Assembly (NCBI GenBank): GCA_964448075.1
Contig: CAYUUR010000002.1
Coordinates: 94,010-158,009 of the forward strand
Length of the DNA stretch: 64,000 bases
Direction: 5' to 3'
Origin: an uncultured Candidatus Saccharibacteria bacterium
Lineage (GTDB): Bacteria; Patescibacteriota; Saccharimonadia; Saccharimonadales; CAYUUR01
Below the pieces are notes generated by a model. That model did no database searches. It saw nothing but the letters and a program-made list of their open reading frames with translations, and had not been told where the DNA came from. Of the stretch, positions 5,443 through 63,586 are shown piece by piece. Made by a program: the position numbers and the translations under genes. Position 1 is the first letter of the stretch. Every line of letters begins with the position of its first letter.

Positions 5443-6123
5443 CTACTGAAGGATAACACTTTTGAGAGATTCTGGTGTCAGATTAGCCATGGCGTGAGCG
5501 TTTTTAATGTCATAGGTTCCAACTTTTATCCGCCTCAAATCAGACATATACGCGCCAGTGGCAAGCATTTCACCGATGTCGCGCACTAAAGAACGAATAT
5601 AGGTACCGCTCGAAACATGGGACGTAAACTTAACAAATGGAAAGTCGTATGACACTTCCGTAATAGCATGGATGGTTACTGTACGTGGCTCCATTTTGAC
5701 TTCCTTACCCGCGCGAGCAAGCTTGTACGCTCGTTGACCGTTCACCTTGATGGCGCTGAAAGCCGGTGGAGTTTGCTGAATCTCACCAACAAAAGACTGT
5801 AAGGTCTGTTTTATTTCCTCAATCTCCGGTCTTCGGTCTCCAGTCTGAGTTTTCTCACCCTCTTCATCATCCGTTGTACTCGTCTCGCCAAGCTTCATCG
5901 TCACTTCATATACTTTGTCGAGTTTAGAGAACTCCTCGGCGCGTTTACAGTAACTTCCCAGGACAACAATCATGAGACCTGTCGCTAATGGGTCGAGTGT
6001 GCCGGTGTGCCCTACTTTGGGCTTCTTGAGCCCCGTTTCACGCTTCACCTGGCCTCGAACCTTAGCCACGACGTCAAAACTCGTCCAGCCTTTTGGCTTA
6101 TCTATAAGCAGAATTCCATCCAT
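5443..6123 (-). CDS. truB: tRNA pseudouridine(55) synthase
   Basis: MDGILLIDKPKGWTSFDVV N-terminus and the GHTGTLDPLATGLMIVVLG catalytic-Asp motif. The start at 6123 has no obvious SD (see findings). Confidence 0.9.
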   Translation of the reverse strand: MDGILLIDKPKGWTSFDVVAKVRGQVKRETGLKKPKVGHTGTLDPLATGLMIVVLGSYCKRAEEFSKLDKVYEVTMKLGETSTTDDEEGEKTQTGDRRPEIEEIKQTLQSFVGEIQQTPPAFSAIKVNGQRAYKLARAGKEVKMEPRTVTIHAITEVSYDFPFVKFTSHVSSGTYIRSLVRDIGEMLATGAYMSDLRRIKVGTYDIKNAHAMANLTPESLKSVILQ

Positions 6124-6145
6124 TAGATTCTACTGTACCACTGAC

Positions 6146-6218
6146 AAGGGAAAAGAGCAGCCCGAGAGACGAATTCATTTCGTCCCCGGCGCGACGAGAA
6201 AAACCGTAGGTTTGTCTC
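6146..6218 (+). repeat. copy 1 of a ~75-nt structured interspersed repeat
   Basis: AAGGGAAAAGAGCAGCC...GACGAA-ttcat-TTCGTC...GAGAAAAACC-gta-GGTTTGTCTC. Alignable end to end with 34697-34771 (reverse complement) and 63165-63241. Confidence 0.85.
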
Positions 6219-6228
6219 TGTTATGAGT

Positions 6229-6278
6229 CTCGTCCAGCCTTTTGGCTTATCTATAAGGAGTAATCCGTCGTAGTTCAT
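6229..6278 (-). pseudogene. displaced truB 5' fragment (ancestral start region)
   Basis: The minus strand reads ATG AAC TAC GAC GGA TTA CTC CTT ATA GAT AAG CCA AAA GGC TGG ACG AG = MNYDGLLLIDKPKGWT. Nucleotides 6229-6257 are identical to 6080-6108 inside truB. It sits 15 nt after the upstream gene's stop, with AAGG about 13 nt upstream. Confidence 0.65.
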
Positions 6279-6293
6279 GACGGACAGTATACC

Positions 6294-8228
6294 TTAGAGC
6301 GGCTGGTTAGGCGGCAATGGTGGCTGCGGACTGCTCATGGTCGGGGGCATAGCCTGTGATGGCATCGGCGGCATCATTGGTGGTGGCACGGGTGGTGGTG
6401 GCGTGGCTGGGCCGCTACTTCCCGAAATATCCTTAGGAGCACTTGGCGGTACAAGATTTGTTGGAACCGTTGATGACACACCGGTGTCGATAATATTTGG
6501 CAAAGGTGGTGCTGGCGAGAACGAAGGCGGGGTTGGCGCACTTGGATTAACAAATGGTTGTGACGCCGATGGCCCAAAGTCGCTATTTACTGATGGCATA
6601 CTCGACTGTAGCGGTTGTGGTGATGTTGCCTGAACAGGAGTTGGTGGTGTGATTGTTGGATTTGGCGGCATACTCATGTCACCACTCGGAGCTGGCGTCG
6701 TGTTGAACGGGTCAGCATTGTTGACCGGGGACGCTGATGGTTTCATATCTGCCCCTGTTGGCGCAACTGAGGGTGATGGCGTATCGCCAAAGGTCGGCAC
6801 AGTAGCCTGTGATGCTGGCTCAGCGGCAGAATCGTGACCAAGATTTAGGTTAACTGGCTGTGCCCCAAGTGCTTGAATTGGCTCAAGATTCTTTTCTGGA
6901 TCACCGCCAACTTCGATAGCCTCATCCACTGCCTCACGGGCGTCTTCTATCTGTTCTTCATGTGACTCTTTATTGTTTTCATCAGAGACTGGCTCATTAC
7001 TGGATGTGTCGTCTGTCTTTTCGTTTGCATTGTTTGAAGCATCTGAAGACTCAGGCAACGGCGCGACTGAAGCTGCCGCAGAACGACTGAGCATACTACC
7101 GTCATCGGTGCGAGGAGCGCCTGCACTCAGCGGATCGGTTGAGGGATCAAGCGACAAATGTTCAGGCACACTATTTGCAGTTAATTTGCCCCCCAGCGTT
7201 GGAGGCTCGAGGGTCATAGTGTTGGCTTTCGGTGGTTCATCAGTTGTTGGCCGAACATTATCAATTGCCGGCCCATTGTCCTCATCTTTTGGCGACAACG
7301 TTTCAGCAGGTTCAGCGTCATCTATCGTCAACGCAATGTCATCATCGTTCGGCTCTGGTAGATCGATCTCTGGTTCGGTTGGCGGCACGGGCTTTTCATC
7401 TTCGACCGGTTTTTCAGGTTCATGCTCAATAGTAAGTTCACCGTCATCTGTCTCAGATGGCTTTTTAACTGTGCTCACTGTCAGGGGTGCGTCAAGCTTA
7501 TTGGCAATCAGTTGCTGGTTGGCGCCTGCCCCCATCAACTCAGAGGCAAGCTTCATGGTTGCAGGGCTCGTCTTCTCATTACTAAAGCGATCCGTTTCGG
7601 CCACAATACCAGTCATCAGTGCAGTAGCTATCTGGTTATCAAAAGCTTCGTGGCTTAATTCTTGCCCAACGAGCGCCATCATTTCGCTCAAACTACTCGC
7701 CTGCAAGTCAACCCAGTTGATAGTGCCAAGACTTCCCTGATCTTTGTTGTTAACCGATATAACAGTGGCGTCGTGCAAGATTCGCCCGTGTGCAACGATG
7801 GCTTGGTCAAGATCTGCTTTCTGATGTACGCCCAACGCCAACACGACATCAACATTGAAATCGCCCTGACTAAAATCTAGGTCTTTATCACTAATACTTG
7901 TTCGATACGGGGTAATGAAGATCTTAACGACAGTATCTTCGACTTTGTAGCGCAGTTTGTCTGCCTTGGATTTATCAAGTGCAATGATAAAATCGCGTAA
8001 CGAATCAGTGTTCTTTTCGAGTGTGTTATCTGGCTGCAAAAACTCCAGTGTCGACGGTACGTCACCACTGAAGACTGCCGCACCACGCTTGCCAACCTTG
8101 TTGAGCAAGAGTGTAAACCCAATACACGCCGCCAATTGATCCACCGTTGGATTGTTGCTGACCGTAACCAACACATTAGTTGCTTCTTTGAGTCGAGCGA
8201 CGAGTGAATCTTTTGCGTTTGGGTCCAT
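6294..8228 (-). CDS. DHH/NrnA-like domain protein with degenerate catalytic motifs and ~400-aa Pro/Ser/Thr/Asp-rich tail
   Basis: The N-terminal ~245 aa align by eye to NrnA-type DHH/DHHA1 (GIVAETDRF vs GIVGDTGRF). However, motif I reads SNNPTVD and the DHH position reads VNNKD. The C-terminal part is low complexity (PPPPVPPPMMPPMP etc.). Confidence 0.65.
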   Translation of the reverse strand: MDPNAKDSLVARLKEATNVLVTVSNNPTVDQLAACIGFTLLLNKVGKRGAAVFSGDVPSTLEFLQPDNTLEKNTDSLRDFIIALDKSKADKLRYKVEDTVVKIFITPYRTSISDKDLDFSQGDFNVDVVLALGVHQKADLDQAIVAHGRILHDATVISVNNKDQGSLGTINWVDLQASSLSEMMALVGQELSHEAFDNQIATALMTGIVAETDRFSNEKTSPATMKLASELMGAGANQQLIANKLDAPLTVSTVKKPSETDDGELTIEHEPEKPVEDEKPVPPTEPEIDLPEPNDDDIALTIDDAEPAETLSPKDEDNGPAIDNVRPTTDEPPKANTMTLEPPTLGGKLTANSVPEHLSLDPSTDPLSAGAPRTDDGSMLSRSAAASVAPLPESSDASNNANEKTDDTSSNEPVSDENNKESHEEQIEDAREAVDEAIEVGGDPEKNLEPIQALGAQPVNLNLGHDSAAEPASQATVPTFGDTPSPSVAPTGADMKPSASPVNNADPFNTTPAPSGDMSMPPNPTITPPTPVQATSPQPLQSSMPSVNSDFGPSASQPFVNPSAPTPPSFSPAPPLPNIIDTGVSSTVPTNLVPPSAPKDISGSSGPATPPPPVPPPMMPPMPSQAMPPTMSSPQPPLPPNQPL

Positions 8229-34630: not shown

Positions 34631-34696
34631 CTATTTAGCTACTAAATCATACGAAAGGCGGATGAATCCTTGGATTTCTTCGCGGCTTCGCCTTAT

Positions 34697-34771
34697 GAGA
34701 CAAACCTAGCGGTTTTTCTCATCGCGCGGTGTGTCGAAATAAATTCGTCACGCCGGCTGCTCTTTTCCCTT
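34697..34771 (-). repeat. copy 2 of the ~75-nt structured interspersed repeat
   Basis: The reverse complement reads AAGGGAAAAGAGCAGCC...GACGAAtttatTTCGAC...GAGAAAAACCgctaGGTTTGTCTC. Flanked by 44-bp direct repeats at 34638-34681 and 34776-34819. Confidence 0.85.
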
Positions 34772-35086
34772 GCTCGCTACTAAATCATACGAAAGACGGA
34801 TGAATCCTTGGATTTCTTCCCAGGGGAGCTGACCACTGAGGATGATGGTATTCCAATGTTTTTTGTTGAGATGATACCCGGGCAAGACCGTTTCGTACTT
34901 CTCACGCAAGGTCGTCGCCAATAGCGGATCGCATTTGAGACTAATCCGTACTGGGTTGGTTTTTTCTGGAATGAGCGCGAACATCTTGTCGTTCACTTTG
35001 TATACTGCTACGCCCTCACCAAAAGGATAATCAAGCACCGCGTTTGGCATGCTCAGTAGATATTCCTCTACTGTCTTATGATCCAT
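34748..35086 (-). CDS. MmcQ/YjbR-family protein (3' end altered by repeat insertion)
   Basis: MPNAVLDYPFGEGVAVYKVNDKMFALI ... LNKKHWNTIIL pattern. The last 7 codons (SKGKEQPA) are encoded by the inserted repeat. Confidence 0.75.
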   Translation of the reverse strand: MDHKTVEEYLLSMPNAVLDYPFGEGVAVYKVNDKMFALIPEKTNPVRISLKCDPLLATTLREKYETVLPGYHLNKKHWNTIILSGQLPWEEIQGFIRLSYDLVASKGKEQPA

Positions 35087-61597: not shown

Positions 61598-62638
61598 ATG
61601 CAGACTGCTCGCAGAATAAGCCTCGTCTTGGCCGCGCCACTGCTCTCAATCGCCATATTTCTAGGAGTAACGGCCTGGAGTGTACAAACATACTTTGCCG
61701 ATGGCAACATGCTCAAAGTCTGGTTGTCCGAGAGTGGTATCTACCCGGCGGCACGAACCATGATTGTTACGCAGACTACTGAAGACAATACCATTCAGAT
61801 GAGTACTGACGAGGTCACTTTCAGCGACAAACTCATCGAGCGCTCCTTGAACCGGGCTTTGACAGCCGAATACCTACAATCAGCCGCTGAGCAGTTTATC
61901 GATGGTACATATGCCTGGCTCCGAGGCGATGTAGAGGTGCCTTCGTACAATATAGATGTGACTAGTCTCAAGACTGCCTTTGCTAATGAGGTTGTGGCGA
62001 GCGCCCGTAAACGACTCGCATCACTGCCGCCGTGTGTCTTGCCGGGTCAAGCTACTACCACCGACCCGTTTAAGACCAATTGCAATCCGCCCAAAGAAGT
62101 GACTCAGAAAGAACTGGCGCGGCTCAAGAAGGAAATTACAGCCAGTAAGGACTTTTTGCCAGCGGATATAACCGCCACAACCACCAGCATATCCCAAGCC
62201 TCGCAACCTACTGAGTCAGCGCCGTGGTATCAGGGCGTAGCACACTTTCCGCGGCTATTCCAGCTCACTATGATTGCTCCATATGTGTTTTCTGTTCTGG
62301 CAGTTGTCATGGCTATTGTCATTGTGTTTGCCAGTCAGACTAAGCGCCGTGGCGCAAAGACAATTGCCATTACCACGCTTACCAGTAGCGCTGCTCTGGC
62401 CTTGAGTGCGGGGATATTGTTGTTCATCGTGGACAGATTCAGCATTCCCGTGTCGTCAAGTAACGCAGAGCTGCAGGAGCCGCTTATTGTCCTATTCAAA
62501 TCAATGTCTAATGCTGTCAGTCGCTGGCAGCTCATCACGAGCCTTGTGTTGGTCGTATTGAGTGGACTCGGTCTGTTGGCGCTTCGATTAACGCGTCCCG
62601 GTGTCGTGGCGCCTGTTGGTCAGAAGACTGTTAAATAA
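61598..62638 (+). CDS. polytopic membrane protein, hypothetical
   Basis: 346 aa with an N-terminal TM, a ~200-aa extracytoplasmic part and 3-4 C-terminal TM helices. Confidence 0.55.
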   Translation: MQTARRISLVLAAPLLSIAIFLGVTAWSVQTYFADGNMLKVWLSESGIYPAARTMIVTQTTEDNTIQMSTDEVTFSDKLIERSLNRALTAEYLQSAAEQFIDGTYAWLRGDVEVPSYNIDVTSLKTAFANEVVASARKRLASLPPCVLPGQATTTDPFKTNCNPPKEVTQKELARLKKEITASKDFLPADITATTTSISQASQPTESAPWYQGVAHFPRLFQLTMIAPYVFSVLAVVMAIVIVFASQTKRRGAKTIAITTLTSSAALALSAGILLFIVDRFSIPVSSSNAELQEPLIVLFKSMSNAVSRWQLITSLVLVVLSGLGLLALRLTRPGVVAPVGQKTVK

Positions 62639-62950
62639 ACAGTCGGCGAAAGGGAGGGGTAGCGCACATCGGCAGCCGTCCTCGGAGTAAACTCCTGTGG
62701 GCGGCTTTGATGACCGCACCATCGGTTCAGTATTTACTAAAGTAAATCCGTCCGAGGGTTCAAATCACTCAACAAGATGAAATGCATCAGCGAGCCGAGG
62801 CGTTTCGTCTTGGCGGAAGGGGAGGGATGCGCTTCGCTTGCACGGATTTCACTGCTCGGTACAAGATTCCTGCGCTGCTCAATCCTGTGCGAACCCCTTT
62901 TGCCTTGGGCAAAAGACAGGGTTCGAATCCTTCCCTGTTTCGATAGAAAC

Positions 62951-62980
62951 AAAAAGACCTTGCCAAAGCGAGGTCTTTTT
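62951..62980. terminator. bidirectional intrinsic terminator downstream of tRNA-Ser
   Basis: aaaaagaccttgc-caaa-gcgaggtcttttt: GC-rich 8-bp stem embedded in complementary A5/T5 runs. Confidence 0.65.
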
Positions 62981-62985
62981 CATCC

Positions 62986-63077
62986 TGGCGGAAGGGGAGG
63001 GATTCGAACCCTCGGTATCGGTTGCCCGACACAACTGTTTTCGAGACAGTCCAGTTCAACCACTCCTGCACCCTTCC
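62986..63077 (-). tRNA. tRNA-Ser (anticodon CGA), class II with long variable arm, CCA encoded
   Basis: Folded by hand: acceptor GGAAGGG/CCCTTCC, anticodon arm ACTGT-CTCGAAA-ACAGT, long variable arm, T arm GAGGG-TTCGAAT-CCCTC, discriminator G, CCA. Confidence 0.9.
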
Positions 63078-63164
63078 GTAAGGTAAATCATAGCACAAAT
63101 ACACTAGTATTTTACTCTGTAATATGATAGGATTACCCCTGTTGTATTCGTTTCCATTCTACGG

Positions 63165-63241
63165 AAGGAAAAAGAGCAGCCCGAGAGAAATGTATTTCAT
63201 TTCCCCGGCGCGATGAGAAAAAACCATCAGGGTTTTGTCTC
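63165..63241 (+). repeat. copy 3 of the ~75-nt structured interspersed repeat
   Basis: AAGGAAAAAGAGCAGCC...GAAATG-tattt-CATTTC...GAGAAAAAACC-atcag-GGTTTTGTCTC. Ends 8 nt before tRNA-Arg. Confidence 0.85.
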
Positions 63242-63249
63242 ATTACCTC

Positions 63250-63326
63250 GCACCCGTAGCTCAGCTGGATAGAGCGTTGGCTTGCGGAGCCAAAGGTCGT
63301 AGGTTCGAATCCTGCCGGGTGTACCA
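63250..63326 (+). tRNA. tRNA-Arg (anticodon read as GCG), CCA encoded
   Basis: Folded by hand: acceptor GCACCCG/CGGGTGT, D arm GCTC-AGCTGGATA-GAGC, anticodon arm TTGGC-TTGCGGA-GCCAA, T arm GTAGG-TTCGAAT-CCTGC, A73-CCA. Close to the E. coli tRNA-Arg backbone. Confidence 0.85.
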
Positions 63327-63334
63327 ATCAAAGG

Positions 63335-63357
63335 AGCCATGGAAACATGGCTTTTTT
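63335..63357. terminator. intrinsic terminator after tRNA-Arg
   Basis: agccatg-gaaa-catggct followed by TTTTT, with AAA before it. Confidence 0.7.
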
Positions 63358-63586
63358 GATTGGTTTATTTTGCTGATTTGGTTCTACGACTCGACAGCTT
63401 GCTGGCGAAAGTCGTAGGTTCGGTCATGAGTCTGCTGCCCGAGTGACTCGGCGCACAGATTCATGTGCGTTTTACCCTGCCGGTGGCAGTTCTCAAGGGA
63501 ACCTTCACCTGGCAACTCGTTGCCATGACGGAAGTTTCGGGGACGCGGAACGTGACCGAATCCTGCTGGGGGATGAGAAAACCTTT

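Follow-up and report, generated by a model that had tools for sequence, protein, structure and literature searches.

A large family of folded 80-95-nt repeats, apparently undescribed, in leaders and cistron junctions of Candidatus Saccharibacteria

The stretch of Candidatus Saccharibacteria DNA analysed here (64,000 nt, referred to below as the window) carries three copies of a repeat, all of whose sequences were found where an earlier note, made from the letters alone, had placed them. Each unit opens with a single-stranded, purine-rich 5' arm (AAGGGAAAAGAGCAGCC); hairpin 1, which varies, and hairpin 2, which is conserved, follow it, and some units add a small hairpin 3. The copies and the features around the third one are as follows.

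6146-6228, + strand: copy 1 (covariance-model match of 91.2 bits; fold), antisense to the local genes; 5' arm 6146-6162, hairpin 1 6163-6189, hairpin 2 6196-6218, tail 6219-6228
34682-34771, - strand: copy 2 (covariance-model match of 90.4 bits; inverted repeat; fold z = -3.07); 5' arm 34771-34755, hairpin 1 about 34754-34727, hairpin 2 34722-34695, hairpin 3 34694-34682
63123-63133, + strand: -10-like hexamers TATGAT / TAGGAT, recognised by sequence, 32-42 nt upstream of copy 3
63165-63249, + strand: copy 3 (covariance-model match of 79.5 bits; fold z = -4.0; inverted repeats); 5' arm 63165-63181, hairpin 1 63182-63208, hairpin 2 63213-63243, tail 63244-63249
63250-63326, + strand: tRNA-Arg(gcg), found by ARAGORN and Rfam, on the same strand as copy 3

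Hairpin 2 of copy 1 reads GAGAAAAACC-gta-GGTTTGTCTC, and hairpin 3 of copy 2 reads GGC-GAA-GCC, followed by GC. Read directly from the letters, the copies take in the slightly shorter spans 6146-6221 (+), 34771-34694 (-) and 63165-63244 (+). The 17-mer occurs exactly three times in the window, against 0.35 occurrences expected even with three mismatches allowed. A covariance-model scan, which the earlier note had proposed as a check, recovered the three window copies and found the family in relatives; with filters off it gave only these three matches in the window (79.5-91.2 bits, E-values of 1e-20 to 1e-23), the next best scoring 15.6 bits. Copy 3 occupies the 5' leader of tRNA-Arg and does adjoin the tRNA, as had been claimed: the element ends at 63241/63244 and the tRNA called by ARAGORN and Rfam begins at 63250, with 6 nt between the end of hairpin 2 (63243) and the tRNA. 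An orthologous arrangement of element and tRNA-Arg is found in L008. The hexamers at 63123-63133 are probably the promoter of a transcript comprising leader, element and tRNA; a simple scan did not call them, and other tRNA-leader copies have the same layout as copy 3 with its upstream -10-like hexamers.

The earlier note overlooked that copies 1 and 2 are flanked by direct repeats of their targets. Copy 1 lies at the start of truB, where the following features were found.

5443-6123, - strand: working truB gene, whose product begins MDGILLIDKPKGWTSFDVV; the truB genes of relatives start alike
6080-6120, no strand assigned: 41-nt direct repeat, inner copy, which supplies codons 2-15 of the working truB
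6121-6145, - strand: new truB start region, with ATG at 6123-6121 and a -10-like TACAGT upstream at 6137-6132
6123-6278, - strand: 51-aa relay ORF, running from the old truB ATG through the element to a stop in a TAATG overlap with the new ATG
6229-6293, - strand: outer repeat (6229-6269) and original truB promoter and start, TATACT followed by ATG at 6278-6276; the product begins MNYDGLLLIDKPKGWT

The two repeats (6080-6120 and 6229-6269) are 41 nt long and 90% identical. TACAGT may act as the -10 box of the new start; in 12 relatives TATACT or TACACT stands 7-12 nt before the truB ATG. The segment 6121-6145 duplicates the native promoter and start in diverged form, which brings the whole duplication to about 66 nt. 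The truB loci of 80 relatives (378 kb) contain no copy of the element. Copy 2 lies at the other end of a gene.

34748-35086, - strand: YjbR-family gene (Pfam YjbR match), which runs into the element and ends with ...DLVASKGKEQPA and a stop
34776-34819, - strand: upstream copy of a 44-nt direct repeat, the last 15 codons of the YjbR-family gene
34638-34681, - strand: downstream copy of the 44-nt repeat, which keeps the native end ...SYDLVAK and stop but has lost its translation

These repeats are identical at 43 of 44 positions (98%). Relatives L212-L216 show an empty site with a single gene end (LVAK or LVAGK, then stop), and YjbR loci with a 91-92% identical protein are likewise empty, with one gene end. 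Four lineages carry copies at one and the same stop codon of yjbR, which could reflect target specificity, precise loss or the scarcity of permissive sites. For copy 3 no direct repeat was found, and the earlier statement that it has no flanking duplication stands.

The three copies belong to a large family of folded repeats of about 80-95 nt in Saccharibacteria, apparently undescribed. Scanning one genome per species with the 17-mer yielded about 59 full units, all of them in metagenome-assembled genomes of Saccharibacteria, Saccharimonadales or Patescibacteria except for L093 (labelled Nomurabacteria) and two labelled only 'bacterium'; the family is represented in dozens of Saccharibacteria/Saccharimonadales genomes and is confined to Candidatus Saccharibacteria and close Patescibacteria. 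A covariance-model search of the loci gave 74 copies in 64 loci. All alignments derive from a sample anchored on the 17-mer, which makes the 5' arm look more conserved than it is. Ten matches among viral contigs carrying the exact 17-mer were all due to chance (17-20 bits), and no phage link was found. Rfam 15 at gathering thresholds recognised only two tRNAs in the whole window, and E-value scans of copies 2 and 3 returned only noise (at most 16 bits on the element), so that by either kind of scan the unit matches no known Rfam family, a match that the earlier note had named as evidence against its reading. In a full-text literature search no paper turned up that describes a comparable element from Saccharibacteria or CPR bacteria, nor is it mentioned in a 2026 preprint on intergenic features. 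Short stretches that we take to resemble SRP RNA (GGAAGGAAGCAGCC) or the hammerhead core (GAUGAG) do not identify the unit as either, given the lack of Rfam support and the wrong architecture.

The fold of the element is under selection. Hairpin 1 comprises 9-12 bp, is free in sequence (61 distinct sequences) and keeps its pairing; it usually includes a conserved 1x1 mismatch, A.C being the commonest; hairpin 2 comprises 10-12 bp, is conserved in sequence and contains a conserved A.G mismatch; hairpin 3 (3-4 bp) is present in one subfamily and terminates with ...GCCGC, other copies having a 3' tail of 3-15 nt of mixed sequence. The compensatory changes reported earlier are borne out: hairpin 1 is GACGAA-ttcat-TTCGTC in copy 1 and GAAATG-tattt-CATTTC in copy 3, both partners differing in four of the six pairs while every pair is kept, copy 2 has a single mismatch (A.A), and hairpin 2 is present in all three copies with the loops gta, gcta and atcag. 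The covariation proposed from these three sequences extends to the 74-copy alignment, in which 95.5% of pair cells are paired, compared with 81.0 +/- 0.6% in shuffles (none of 500 reached the observed value) and 34-53% in slid controls. Cells changed on both sides number 196, compared with 49 in the shuffles; 16 of the 19 pairs are changed on both sides, one of them occurring as CG in 40 copies, GC in 15, AU in 14 and UA in 2. Hairpin 2 itself is fully recoded in L120-5593, L078-3139 and L075-7873, and the A-runs of the 5' arm and of hairpin 2 vary together. Energetics did not serve to choose the RNA strand: the modelled pairs, with 33 G.U versus 17 A.C on the sense strand, mildly favour the sense strand, whereas minimum free energy (MFE) favours the antisense RNA, the stabler one for 50 of 70 copies, an effect due mainly to the conserved A.C mismatch of hairpin 1, which is G.U on that strand.

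A tRNA begins 2-12 nt downstream of 19 of the 74 copies, in all 19 cases on the same strand, and the copy in L099 adjoins 5S rRNA; most of the others are found at cistron junctions, including those of ribosomal-protein operons, and also at gene 3' ends. In leaders, a -10-like box precedes the copy by 17-38 nt, and the mature 5' end of the tRNA or 5S rRNA follows at 2-12 nt. About 88% of the copies are co-oriented with the flanking genes, about seven are antisense to their own operon, and a -10-like box with a start codon comes after six of the seven antisense copies at junctions. Several species carry the element at the same tRNA-Arg, tRNA-Met and rplC/rplD positions, with hairpin 1 recoded yet paired. 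The earlier note had suggested either a small RNA or a DNA hairpin under selection; the selected fold holds, but not a free-standing small-RNA gene, because copies embedded in leaders, junctions and 3' ends, wedged against a tRNA or 5S rRNA or squeezed in between the stop codon of one gene and the SD/ATG of the next, have no space for a promoter and terminator of their own.

These placements raise the possibility that the element is a host cis-acting RNA module (for processing, stability or protein binding) that functions on the sense strand, its mobility being incidental; it would then act in the 5' leaders of stable RNAs and in the intercistronic regions of highly expressed operons. We consider this possible, though on balance doubtful. 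The co-orientation, the regular spacing of leader copies, the sites shared across species with hairpin 1 recoded and the excess of G.U over A.C on the sense strand all speak for it, and the conserved mismatches (A.C in hairpin 1, A.G in hairpin 2) together with the linked A-runs suggest a specific partner. However, the element is absent from many relatives (e.g. from the 378 kb of truB loci and from the 23S-5S spacer of L006) and is therefore not essential; ribosomes at cistron junctions would translate across it and unfold it; the antisense copies and the folding energies run counter to a sense-strand function; and copies 100% identical to each other in diverged flanks (L048) indicate gene conversion or spread rather than site-by-site selection.

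The opposite strand has to be considered as well, since the element could be a portable intrinsic terminator whose antisense strand is functional (hairpin 2', hairpin 1', then GGCUGCUCUUUUCCCUU), copies in the other orientation being inert passengers. The MFE fold of that strand is a long GC-rich stem ending directly before UCUUUUCCCUU, the 5' arm, which is the most conserved segment, is the complement of the U-tract, and the antisense RNA is the stabler in most copies. About 17 copies follow a gene of the antisense strand, at 0-20 nt (or one duplication) from its stop codon; they include copy 1 (after a 644-aa gene), copy 2 (after a convergent 213-aa gene) and L078-5097, which is placed after murJ and before lepA. 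Nevertheless, we find a terminator unlikely: a terminator scan that detects the one of tRNA-Arg finds none of the three window copies, most copies, including every tRNA-leader and ribosomal-protein copy, face a direction that is useless to any gene, the sequence conservation of hairpin 2 is left unexplained, and the antisense copy of L035 lies within an apparent operon, between a stop codon and an SD+ATG 18 nt away. The likeness to intrinsic terminators covers the antisense GC-rich stem of variable sequence with the conserved U-rich run behind it, and ends with the interruption of this stem, the second, sequence-conserved hairpin that precedes it and the orientation of most copies, which point the other way.

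At cistron junctions the element is accommodated by a relay ORF: from the duplicated start codon this short ORF continues without interruption through the element and terminates where the next gene begins. At least 14 junction copies have such an ATG-started ORF in one frame (M..REKSSQS..LRDEKNR..), ending at the start of the next gene. The shared frame, with ATG and SD upstream, would suit a gene for a small protein of about 35 aa, which as a general explanation we reject as extremely improbable: a start codon or an open frame is missing from the tRNA-leader copies and from many others, the differences in hairpin 1 length are not multiples of three, the ORFs across copies 1 and 2 use other frames or the opposite strand, and the substitutions follow base-pair covariation and are not codon-like.

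The element behaves as a mobile, non-autonomous one. It has been gained at new sites, because close relatives show empty sites, and the gain often comes with a direct duplication of the target of about 12-66 nt, which regenerates the interrupted gene start or end in this gene-dense genome. Scores for flank duplications reached 24 at most in the null set and 30-101 in the observed one; the duplications above the null include those of L078 (53 nt), copy 2 (44 nt), L064 (42 nt), copy 1 (41 nt) and L077 (24 nt), as well as those of about 20 nt in L028, L041 and L033. In total, lengths of 0, 12, 15, 21, 24, 41, 42, 44 and 53 nt were recorded, and more with diverged parts, up to about 66 nt. In L078 the duplication includes the entire stop codon, so rescue of the gene did not require it. 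Microhomology (AAGG/AGGG) is present at the 5' junction in two cases. The ORFs near the copies are housekeeping genes (PolA, a ValRS-type synthetase, TsaD, LepA, MurJ), and no mobilising enzyme was found among the window ORFs scanned. The terminal inverted repeats of an insertion sequence, whose presence would have told against the original interpretation, are missing: there are only internal hairpins, and the ends AAGGGAAAAGAG and ...GTCTCAT are not complementary. A replication-strand bias was rejected: the window has a negative GC skew throughout, but contains copies on either strand.

Several classes of mobile or recombining DNA were considered and set aside. MITEs have terminal inverted repeats and a fixed short target-site duplication, neither of which is present here, and no transposase of a parent IS was found among the ORFs scanned. 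IS200/IS605-type hairpin elements (PATE) do not fit the long duplications at many copies and flanks that share no constant motif. A TR/VR pair of a diversity-generating retroelement was discarded because the flanking repeats differ by C/T, T/A, A/T and C/G and are not adenine-specific, with truB, yjbR, orn and dnaG as neighbours and no reverse transcriptase. An integron attC site (RYYYAAC ... GTTRRRY) disagrees with the 5' end, which is AAGGGAAAAG, and with the lack of a consistent GTTRRRY at the 3' end. Finally, the boxA-like UGCUCUUU in the reverse complement of the 5' arm lies on the wrong strand for most copies, and we take it to be due to chance.

A related reading is that of a DNA-level hairpin moved by a single-strand HUH/Y1 enzyme in the style of REP/RAYT or IS200/IS605 derivatives. 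It would account for a conserved single-stranded flank beside an imperfect hairpin with a conserved mismatch, for a high-copy family in or beside intergenic regions and for a structure kept while the stem sequence is free. However, HUH/Y1 systems make no target duplication and use a fixed tetranucleotide, whereas here duplications range from 0 to about 66 nt with no constant flanking motif; the GTAG/CGTC tag is absent, the orientation tracks transcription rather than replication, and no such enzyme was found among the ORFs scanned. We judge this highly unlikely.

The explanation that we favour, with a probability of roughly 0.55, is that the copies are non-autonomous, structured, interspersed elements of about 80-95 nt, copied by host machinery with variable target duplication. 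The conserved ends and hairpins would be what this host-encoded machinery recognises when copying the element, and the wide, variable duplications and the 5' microhomology would point to templated synthesis at a staggered break, possibly by template switching or target-primed copying. To our knowledge the duplication spectrum matches no characterised bacterial mechanism, and for this reason the copying step can only be inferred; the insertion does not look like that of a classical DDE or HUH transposase. The element is also likely to be strand-asymmetric, since its antisense strand would be read as a GC-rich stem followed by UCUUUU and may resemble a terminator. It would then be clear why operons and leaders retain the element in the other orientation only, and why copies in antisense stand at transcription-unit boundaries, with a promoter following them. 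A simple terminator scan did not call the antisense strand, which counts against this argument about orientation, as does the L035 copy described above. Where orthologous tRNA and ribosomal-protein sites keep the position and fold of the element in different species, a host function could be the reason instead.

A more specific version would make the family a bacterial counterpart of SINEs, in which leader fragments of tRNA or rRNA precursors are copied back at staggered breaks. In this improbable scheme, the 3' end of the fragment would be set by RNase P or by 5S maturation; the copies with hairpin 3 all end with ...GCCGC, the nucleotide abutting 5S rRNA in L099. It would account for duplications of 0 to about 66 nt, for microhomology at the 5' junction and for insertion at landmarks that would be defined by RNA, namely start codons, stop codons and the 5' ends of mature RNAs. 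The idea that a copy in the rRNA spacer is a universal 'master' found no support: the 23S-5S spacer of L006 is empty.

Eukaryotic SINEs and tRNA-targeting retroelements (Ty3, TRE5 of Dictyostelium) resemble the family in being non-autonomous, in the variable-length target duplications, a SINE-like property found here, in occasional 5' microhomology and in a marked association with the region just upstream of tRNA genes. They differ in that the repeats described here have no 3' A-rich or simple-repeat tail, no linked reverse transcriptase and a bacterial host without Pol III, where an RNA intermediate is hypothetical.

Genomes of Saccharibacteria are about 1 Mb in size and thought to be repeat-poor. 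With about three copies per 64 kb here and occurrence in dozens of species, the family is a sizeable unannotated feature of these small genomes, which explains odd annotations such as extra C-terminal tails (...KGKEQPA), duplicated gene starts and small spurious ORFs, and which can serve as a marker of strain-level variation. It also illustrates how an insertion is absorbed in an operon without loss of function, with the help of a target duplication and of a relay ORF that runs up to the next start codon. As long variable duplications fit no characterised bacterial transposition, the family provides a handle on a possibly new route of insertion and may reveal a pathway new to bacteria, in a host phylum that is now genetically tractable.

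We rate the family as a variant among the small structured repeats of bacteria, with new features. Like the RAYT-mobilised REP/BIME elements of Proteobacteria, it consists of short, high-copy, non-coding repeats with an imperfect hairpin and a conserved single-stranded tag, located at gene ends and within operons and co-transcribed with their neighbours. REPs, however, are 20-40-nt palindromes with a 5' GTAG/CGTC tag, whereas here GAGCAGCC precedes the foot of the hairpin, the unit of 80-95 nt has two or three hairpins and a 17-nt arm, and the copies are found in tRNA leaders and just inside gene starts, with long target duplications. We know of no RAYT gene for this family, and none was found among the ORFs scanned. 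With ERIC/IRU, BOX, RUP and Correia (CREE/NEMIS) elements the family shares the character of lineage-specific modular repeats (100-150 nt in those families) that are co-transcribed, form stable RNA folds and may have orientation-dependent effects on termination, processing or expression. A sequence relationship with them is not apparent, and the transposing types among them have terminal inverted repeats and fixed short duplications (TA, 2-9 bp), neither of which is present here.

The Rickettsia palindromic elements (RPEs) are likewise small structured repeats of a reduced genome that are tolerated in or near coding regions and translated, as is the element sequence here in the KGKEQPA tail of YjbR and in the relay ORFs. 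RPEs, however, enter genes in frame and are incorporated into the protein, whereas the insertions described here are found at gene starts, at stop codons and in RNA leaders, with the gene end regenerated by the duplication.

The repeat present in three copies in the window is best described as a non-autonomous, structured, interspersed element. The positions of the copies, as well as every hairpin and loop sequence quoted for them in the earlier note, were found to be correct. The copies span:

6146-6228, plus strand, copy 1
34771-34682, minus strand, copy 2
63165-63249, plus strand, copy 3

The 17-mer AAGGRAAAAGAGCAGCC occurs exactly three times in the window, versus 0.35 occurrences expected even with up to three mismatches. 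A covariance model (CM) made from related copies, run across the whole window with filters off, yielded these three copies only (79.5-91.2 bits; next-best match 15.6 bits), and the predicted fold was recovered in all three, with z-scores of -2.0 to -4.0.

The gene content of the window (truB, dnaG, orn, yjbR, polA, a class-I tRNA synthetase) fits Candidatus Saccharibacteria, and the related element matches all lie within this group as well. A scan for the 17-mer, with one genome per species, retrieved at least 119 loci, among which at least about 59 contain the full unit. The full-unit loci listed are nearly all labelled Saccharibacteria, Saccharimonadales, Saccharimonadia or Patescibacteria, the exceptions being one Nomurabacteria (L093; such handles denote loci from relatives' genomes) and two labelled only "bacterium". 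Matches from other phyla, among those listed, have the 17-mer alone in common, and viral contigs with the exact 17-mer contain it by chance, with no copy of the element. The CM identified 74 copies across 64 of the listed loci of the full-unit group; 9 or 10 of them lack the exact 17-mer, score 40-78 bits and are the tail of older copies expected for a repeat family. The distribution among relatives is patchy, and some genomes (Th196P4bin6) carry at least six copies.

On the sense strand the element comprises:

5' arm: purine-rich, AAGGGAAAAGAGCAGCC
hairpin 1: 9-12 bp, 61 distinct sequences among the copies
junction between hairpins 1 and 2: short, GCGCGA
hairpin 2: (A)UGAGAAAAACC-loop-GGUUUGUCUC(AU), with a conserved A.G mismatch
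3' end: a short tail; one subfamily instead has AUAA and then a hairpin 3 of 3-4 bp

The conserved fold, claimed in the earlier note from compensatory changes among the three copies, is borne out by the family. In the alignment of 74 copies, which was fitted to the CM and is thus biased toward structure, 95.5% of the pair cells are standard, compared to 81.0 +/- 0.6% after shuffling (none of 500 shuffles attained the observed value) and 34-53% when the partners are slid by 1-3 columns. Both sides have changed in 196 cells versus 49 expected, with double changes at 16 of the 19 pairs; one pair is CG in 40 copies, GC in 15, AU in 14 and UA in 2. An independent MAFFT/RNAalifold run gave the same picture. 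Hairpin 2 has been fully recoded in the diverged copies of L120 (GAGAGGGGA/UCCCCUCUC) and L078 (GAGAAACCCC/GGGGUGUCUU). No Rfam 15 family matches the element and no IS terminal inverted repeat was found on it, both having been considered in the earlier note as possible identities of the unit.

Hairpin 1 usually contains a 1x1 mismatch four pairs from the base, which is A.C in 33 of 61 copies and elsewhere C.A, C.C, A.A or A.G; these residues suggest a site that is kept unpaired instead of forming a wobble. In two loci (L070:5451-5536 and L028:7020-7108) a Y-shaped domain, made up of an outer stem with two hairpins, takes the place of hairpin 1, and the two domains covary with each other. The stem of hairpin 3 varies (GGC/GCC, GCG/CGC, AGCG/CGCU, GCCC/GGGC, GGGC/GCCC), and the terminus of this class is always ...GCCGC. 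The A-runs of the 5' arm and of hairpin 2 vary together in length (4/5, 5/6, 2/3): a GGG-A4 arm accompanies A5 in 39 copies (e.g. 63165-63181 with 63213-63243 in the window), GG-A5 accompanies A6 in six of eight copies, GGG-A2 accompanies A3 in L078, and in L120 arm and hairpin 2 form a perfect mirror (GGGGAGAG / GAGAGGGG). L103 and L109 are exceptions. The tracking persists despite hairpin-1 types being shuffled between the classes, both of which occur within one genome. We also noted a further short repeat, some 40 nt long (in order, GGGGNCCCC, an A-run/T-run hairpin and GTGGGG), nested within hairpin 2 in five genomes and located directly before it in a sixth (L110:152-267, L025:5146-5262, L045:1317-1434, L117:3538-3609, L217:761-875, L015:2940-3028), which looks like a small insertion module in its own right.

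As for genomic context, 19 of the 74 copies end 2-12 nt before a tRNA gene, with which they share the strand in every case. A -10-like hexamer lies 17-38 nt upstream of such copies, which would make them part of the 5' leader of the primary transcript. Seven of the cases involve tRNA-Met (elongator and initiator), and the others Gln, Val, Pro, Arg, Ser, Asn, Leu and Tyr. Copy 3 belongs here: tRNA-Arg(gcg), which the earlier note had seen next to it, begins at 63250, 6-8 nt past its end. Behind this tRNA a terminator is called on both strands (63323-63364), which probably also ends the minus-strand gene coming from the right window edge. The copy in L099 occupies the end of the 23S-5S spacer, its hairpin-3-class ...GCCGC terminus coinciding with nucleotide 1 of 5S rRNA, which its final base adjoins; the corresponding spacer of L006 lacks the element. 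Most remaining copies are found at cistron junctions, including rplC/rplD (three species), rplE/rpsN, upstream of rplM, rplM/rpsI, rpsC/rplP and rpmC/rpsQ (ribosomal-protein names were read from the first residues of the products). There, the end of gene A, a Shine-Dalgarno (SD) sequence, an ATG and a few codons precede the element, which is followed by the SD and ATG of gene B. At least 14 junction copies have a duplicated ATG 8, 11, 14, 17 or 20 nt before AAGG, from which a frame (M..REKSSQS..LRDEKNR..) reads across the element to a stop that coincides with the next start or is only a few bases away from it. We infer from this arrangement that such frames serve as relay ORFs preserving translational coupling.

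About 88% of the copies are co-oriented with their neighbours. Replication direction was rejected as the cause, since GC skew is uniform in the window while copies lie on both strands. Seven copies are antisense between co-directional genes (copy 1, L035, L045, L054, L078-5097, L093, L103; one lies between murJ and lepA), and in six of them a -10-like box and a start codon come next in the direction of transcription; they therefore sit at transcription-unit boundaries. About ten further copies, like copy 2, directly follow the stop of a convergent gene. The antisense order is hairpin 2', hairpin 1', then GGCUGCUCUUUUCCCUU, and its minimum free energy (MFE) fold is a long GC-rich stem leading directly into UCUUUU. 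Two signals bear on whether the element acts as RNA or as DNA, and they conflict: modelled pairs on the sense strand include 33 G.U versus 17 A.C, while in 50 of 70 copies it is the antisense RNA that folds more stably, chiefly owing to the conserved A.C mismatch, which turns into G.U there. A consensus terminator scan makes no call on the element. Most simply, one orientation would be polar and would have been purged from operons and leaders, L035 being an exception.

The gain of copies 1 and 2 can be followed by comparison with relatives. All 80 related truB loci (378 kb in total; TruB 44-75% identical) are free of the element and have one truB start, MDGILLIDKPKGWTSFDVV, which a TATACT-like box precedes by 7-12 nt. 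The original promoter and start of the window's truB lie outside copy 1 at 6229-6293 (TATACT, then ATG; product MNYDGLLLIDKPKGWT), and a second set at 6080-6145 comprises a promoter-like box TACAGT, an ATG and the same codons, continuing into truB; hence a stretch of about 66 nt has been duplicated. Its final 29 nt are identical and the remainder has diverged. The 41-nt direct repeat flanking copy 1 (6080-6120 / 6229-6269, 90% identical) was overlooked in the earlier note, as was the 44-nt repeat flanking copy 2 (34776-34819 / 34638-34681, 43/44 identical). In a relay arrangement like that of the junction copies, but on the other strand, a 51-aa ORF runs from the old truB ATG across copy 1 to a TAATG overlap with the new ATG. 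The short distance from the TATACT-like -10 box to the ATG (7-12 nt), seen in L122-L133 and at 6270-6293, implies that truB mRNA may be leaderless or nearly so. The minus-strand ORF at 6294-8228 (644 aa) is rich in proline in its C-terminal half; neither it nor a 346-aa ORF at 61598-62638 (plus strand) has a Pfam match.

In the closest YjbR orthologues (L212-L216, 91-92% protein identity) the gene has just one end, ...LVAK* or ...LVAGK*; the convergent gene is 10-14 nt away, and the gap is empty of the element. Copy 2 splits a 44-nt duplication of this end, and the window yjbR now stops within the element (...DLVASKGKEQPA*). In L217 and L219 this stop codon likewise harbours the element, there without duplication, and the syntenic L057 (YjbR 62% identical) shows a duplication of about 60 nt that has decayed; the yjbR stop is filled in four lineages but empty in the closest relatives. 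L220 contains a different insert of about 480 nt (1822-2306) with repeated GGTTACTTTGG / CCAAAGTAAC motifs at this spot, which suggests that the yjbR/convergent-gene junction is a permissive landing site.

Flank-versus-flank Smith-Waterman comparison gave scores of 30-101 for 11 copies, against a null maximum of 24, which a 12-nt repeat in L054 equals. The duplications include:

L078-3139 (copy at position 3139 of L078): 53 nt
L064: 42 nt, or about 55 nt allowing for a scrambled patch
L077: 24 nt
L028, L041, L033: about 20 nt
L120: 15 nt

None of the 19 tRNA-leader copies has a flank duplication, in agreement with the earlier note for copy 3. The duplication in L078 includes the entire stop codon and therefore was not needed for gene rescue; it must have arisen from insertion itself. 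At the 5' junctions of L064 and copy 2 the target reads AAGG or AGGG, in microhomology with the first bases of the element. A range from none to about 66 nt does not match what is known of DDE, HUH, tyrosine or serine recombinases, and the spectrum looks more like templated insertion at staggered breaks, or like target-primed copying, either of which would be a candidate mechanism. No mobilising enzyme was found, the scanned ORFs near copies being housekeeping genes. The two copies in L048, 552 nt apart, are 100% identical with diverged flanks, and neighbouring copies within one ribosomal-protein operon have a common hairpin-1 variant; therefore gene conversion or local re-copying acts too. 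A more exotic, RNA-templated origin has a low probability, kept alive by the filling of the yjbR stop, the clustering of divergence within duplications, the A-run tracking and the coincidence of GCCGC with the 5S start.

As a non-autonomous interspersed repeat, the element joins REP/BIME, ERIC, BOX, RUP, Correia and RPE among the small bacterial repeats. Unlike these, it has no inverted termini or GTAG tag, consists of an arm with two or three hairpins, prefers the leaders of stable RNAs as well as the first codons or stop codons of genes, and has target duplications spanning none to about 66 nt. No description of it was found in a literature search.

Another duplication was observed to the left of copy 3, beside the following gene:

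62986-63077, minus strand, tRNA-Ser(cga)

A 29-nt direct repeat (90% identical; 62803-63006) duplicates the 3' end of this tRNA 175 nt away. A tRNA-like T-arm fragment (~62915-62940) and a terminator-like hairpin (~62945-62980) lie between the repeats, and the region resembles either the att-type scar left by an integrated element or a tRNA copy in decay.
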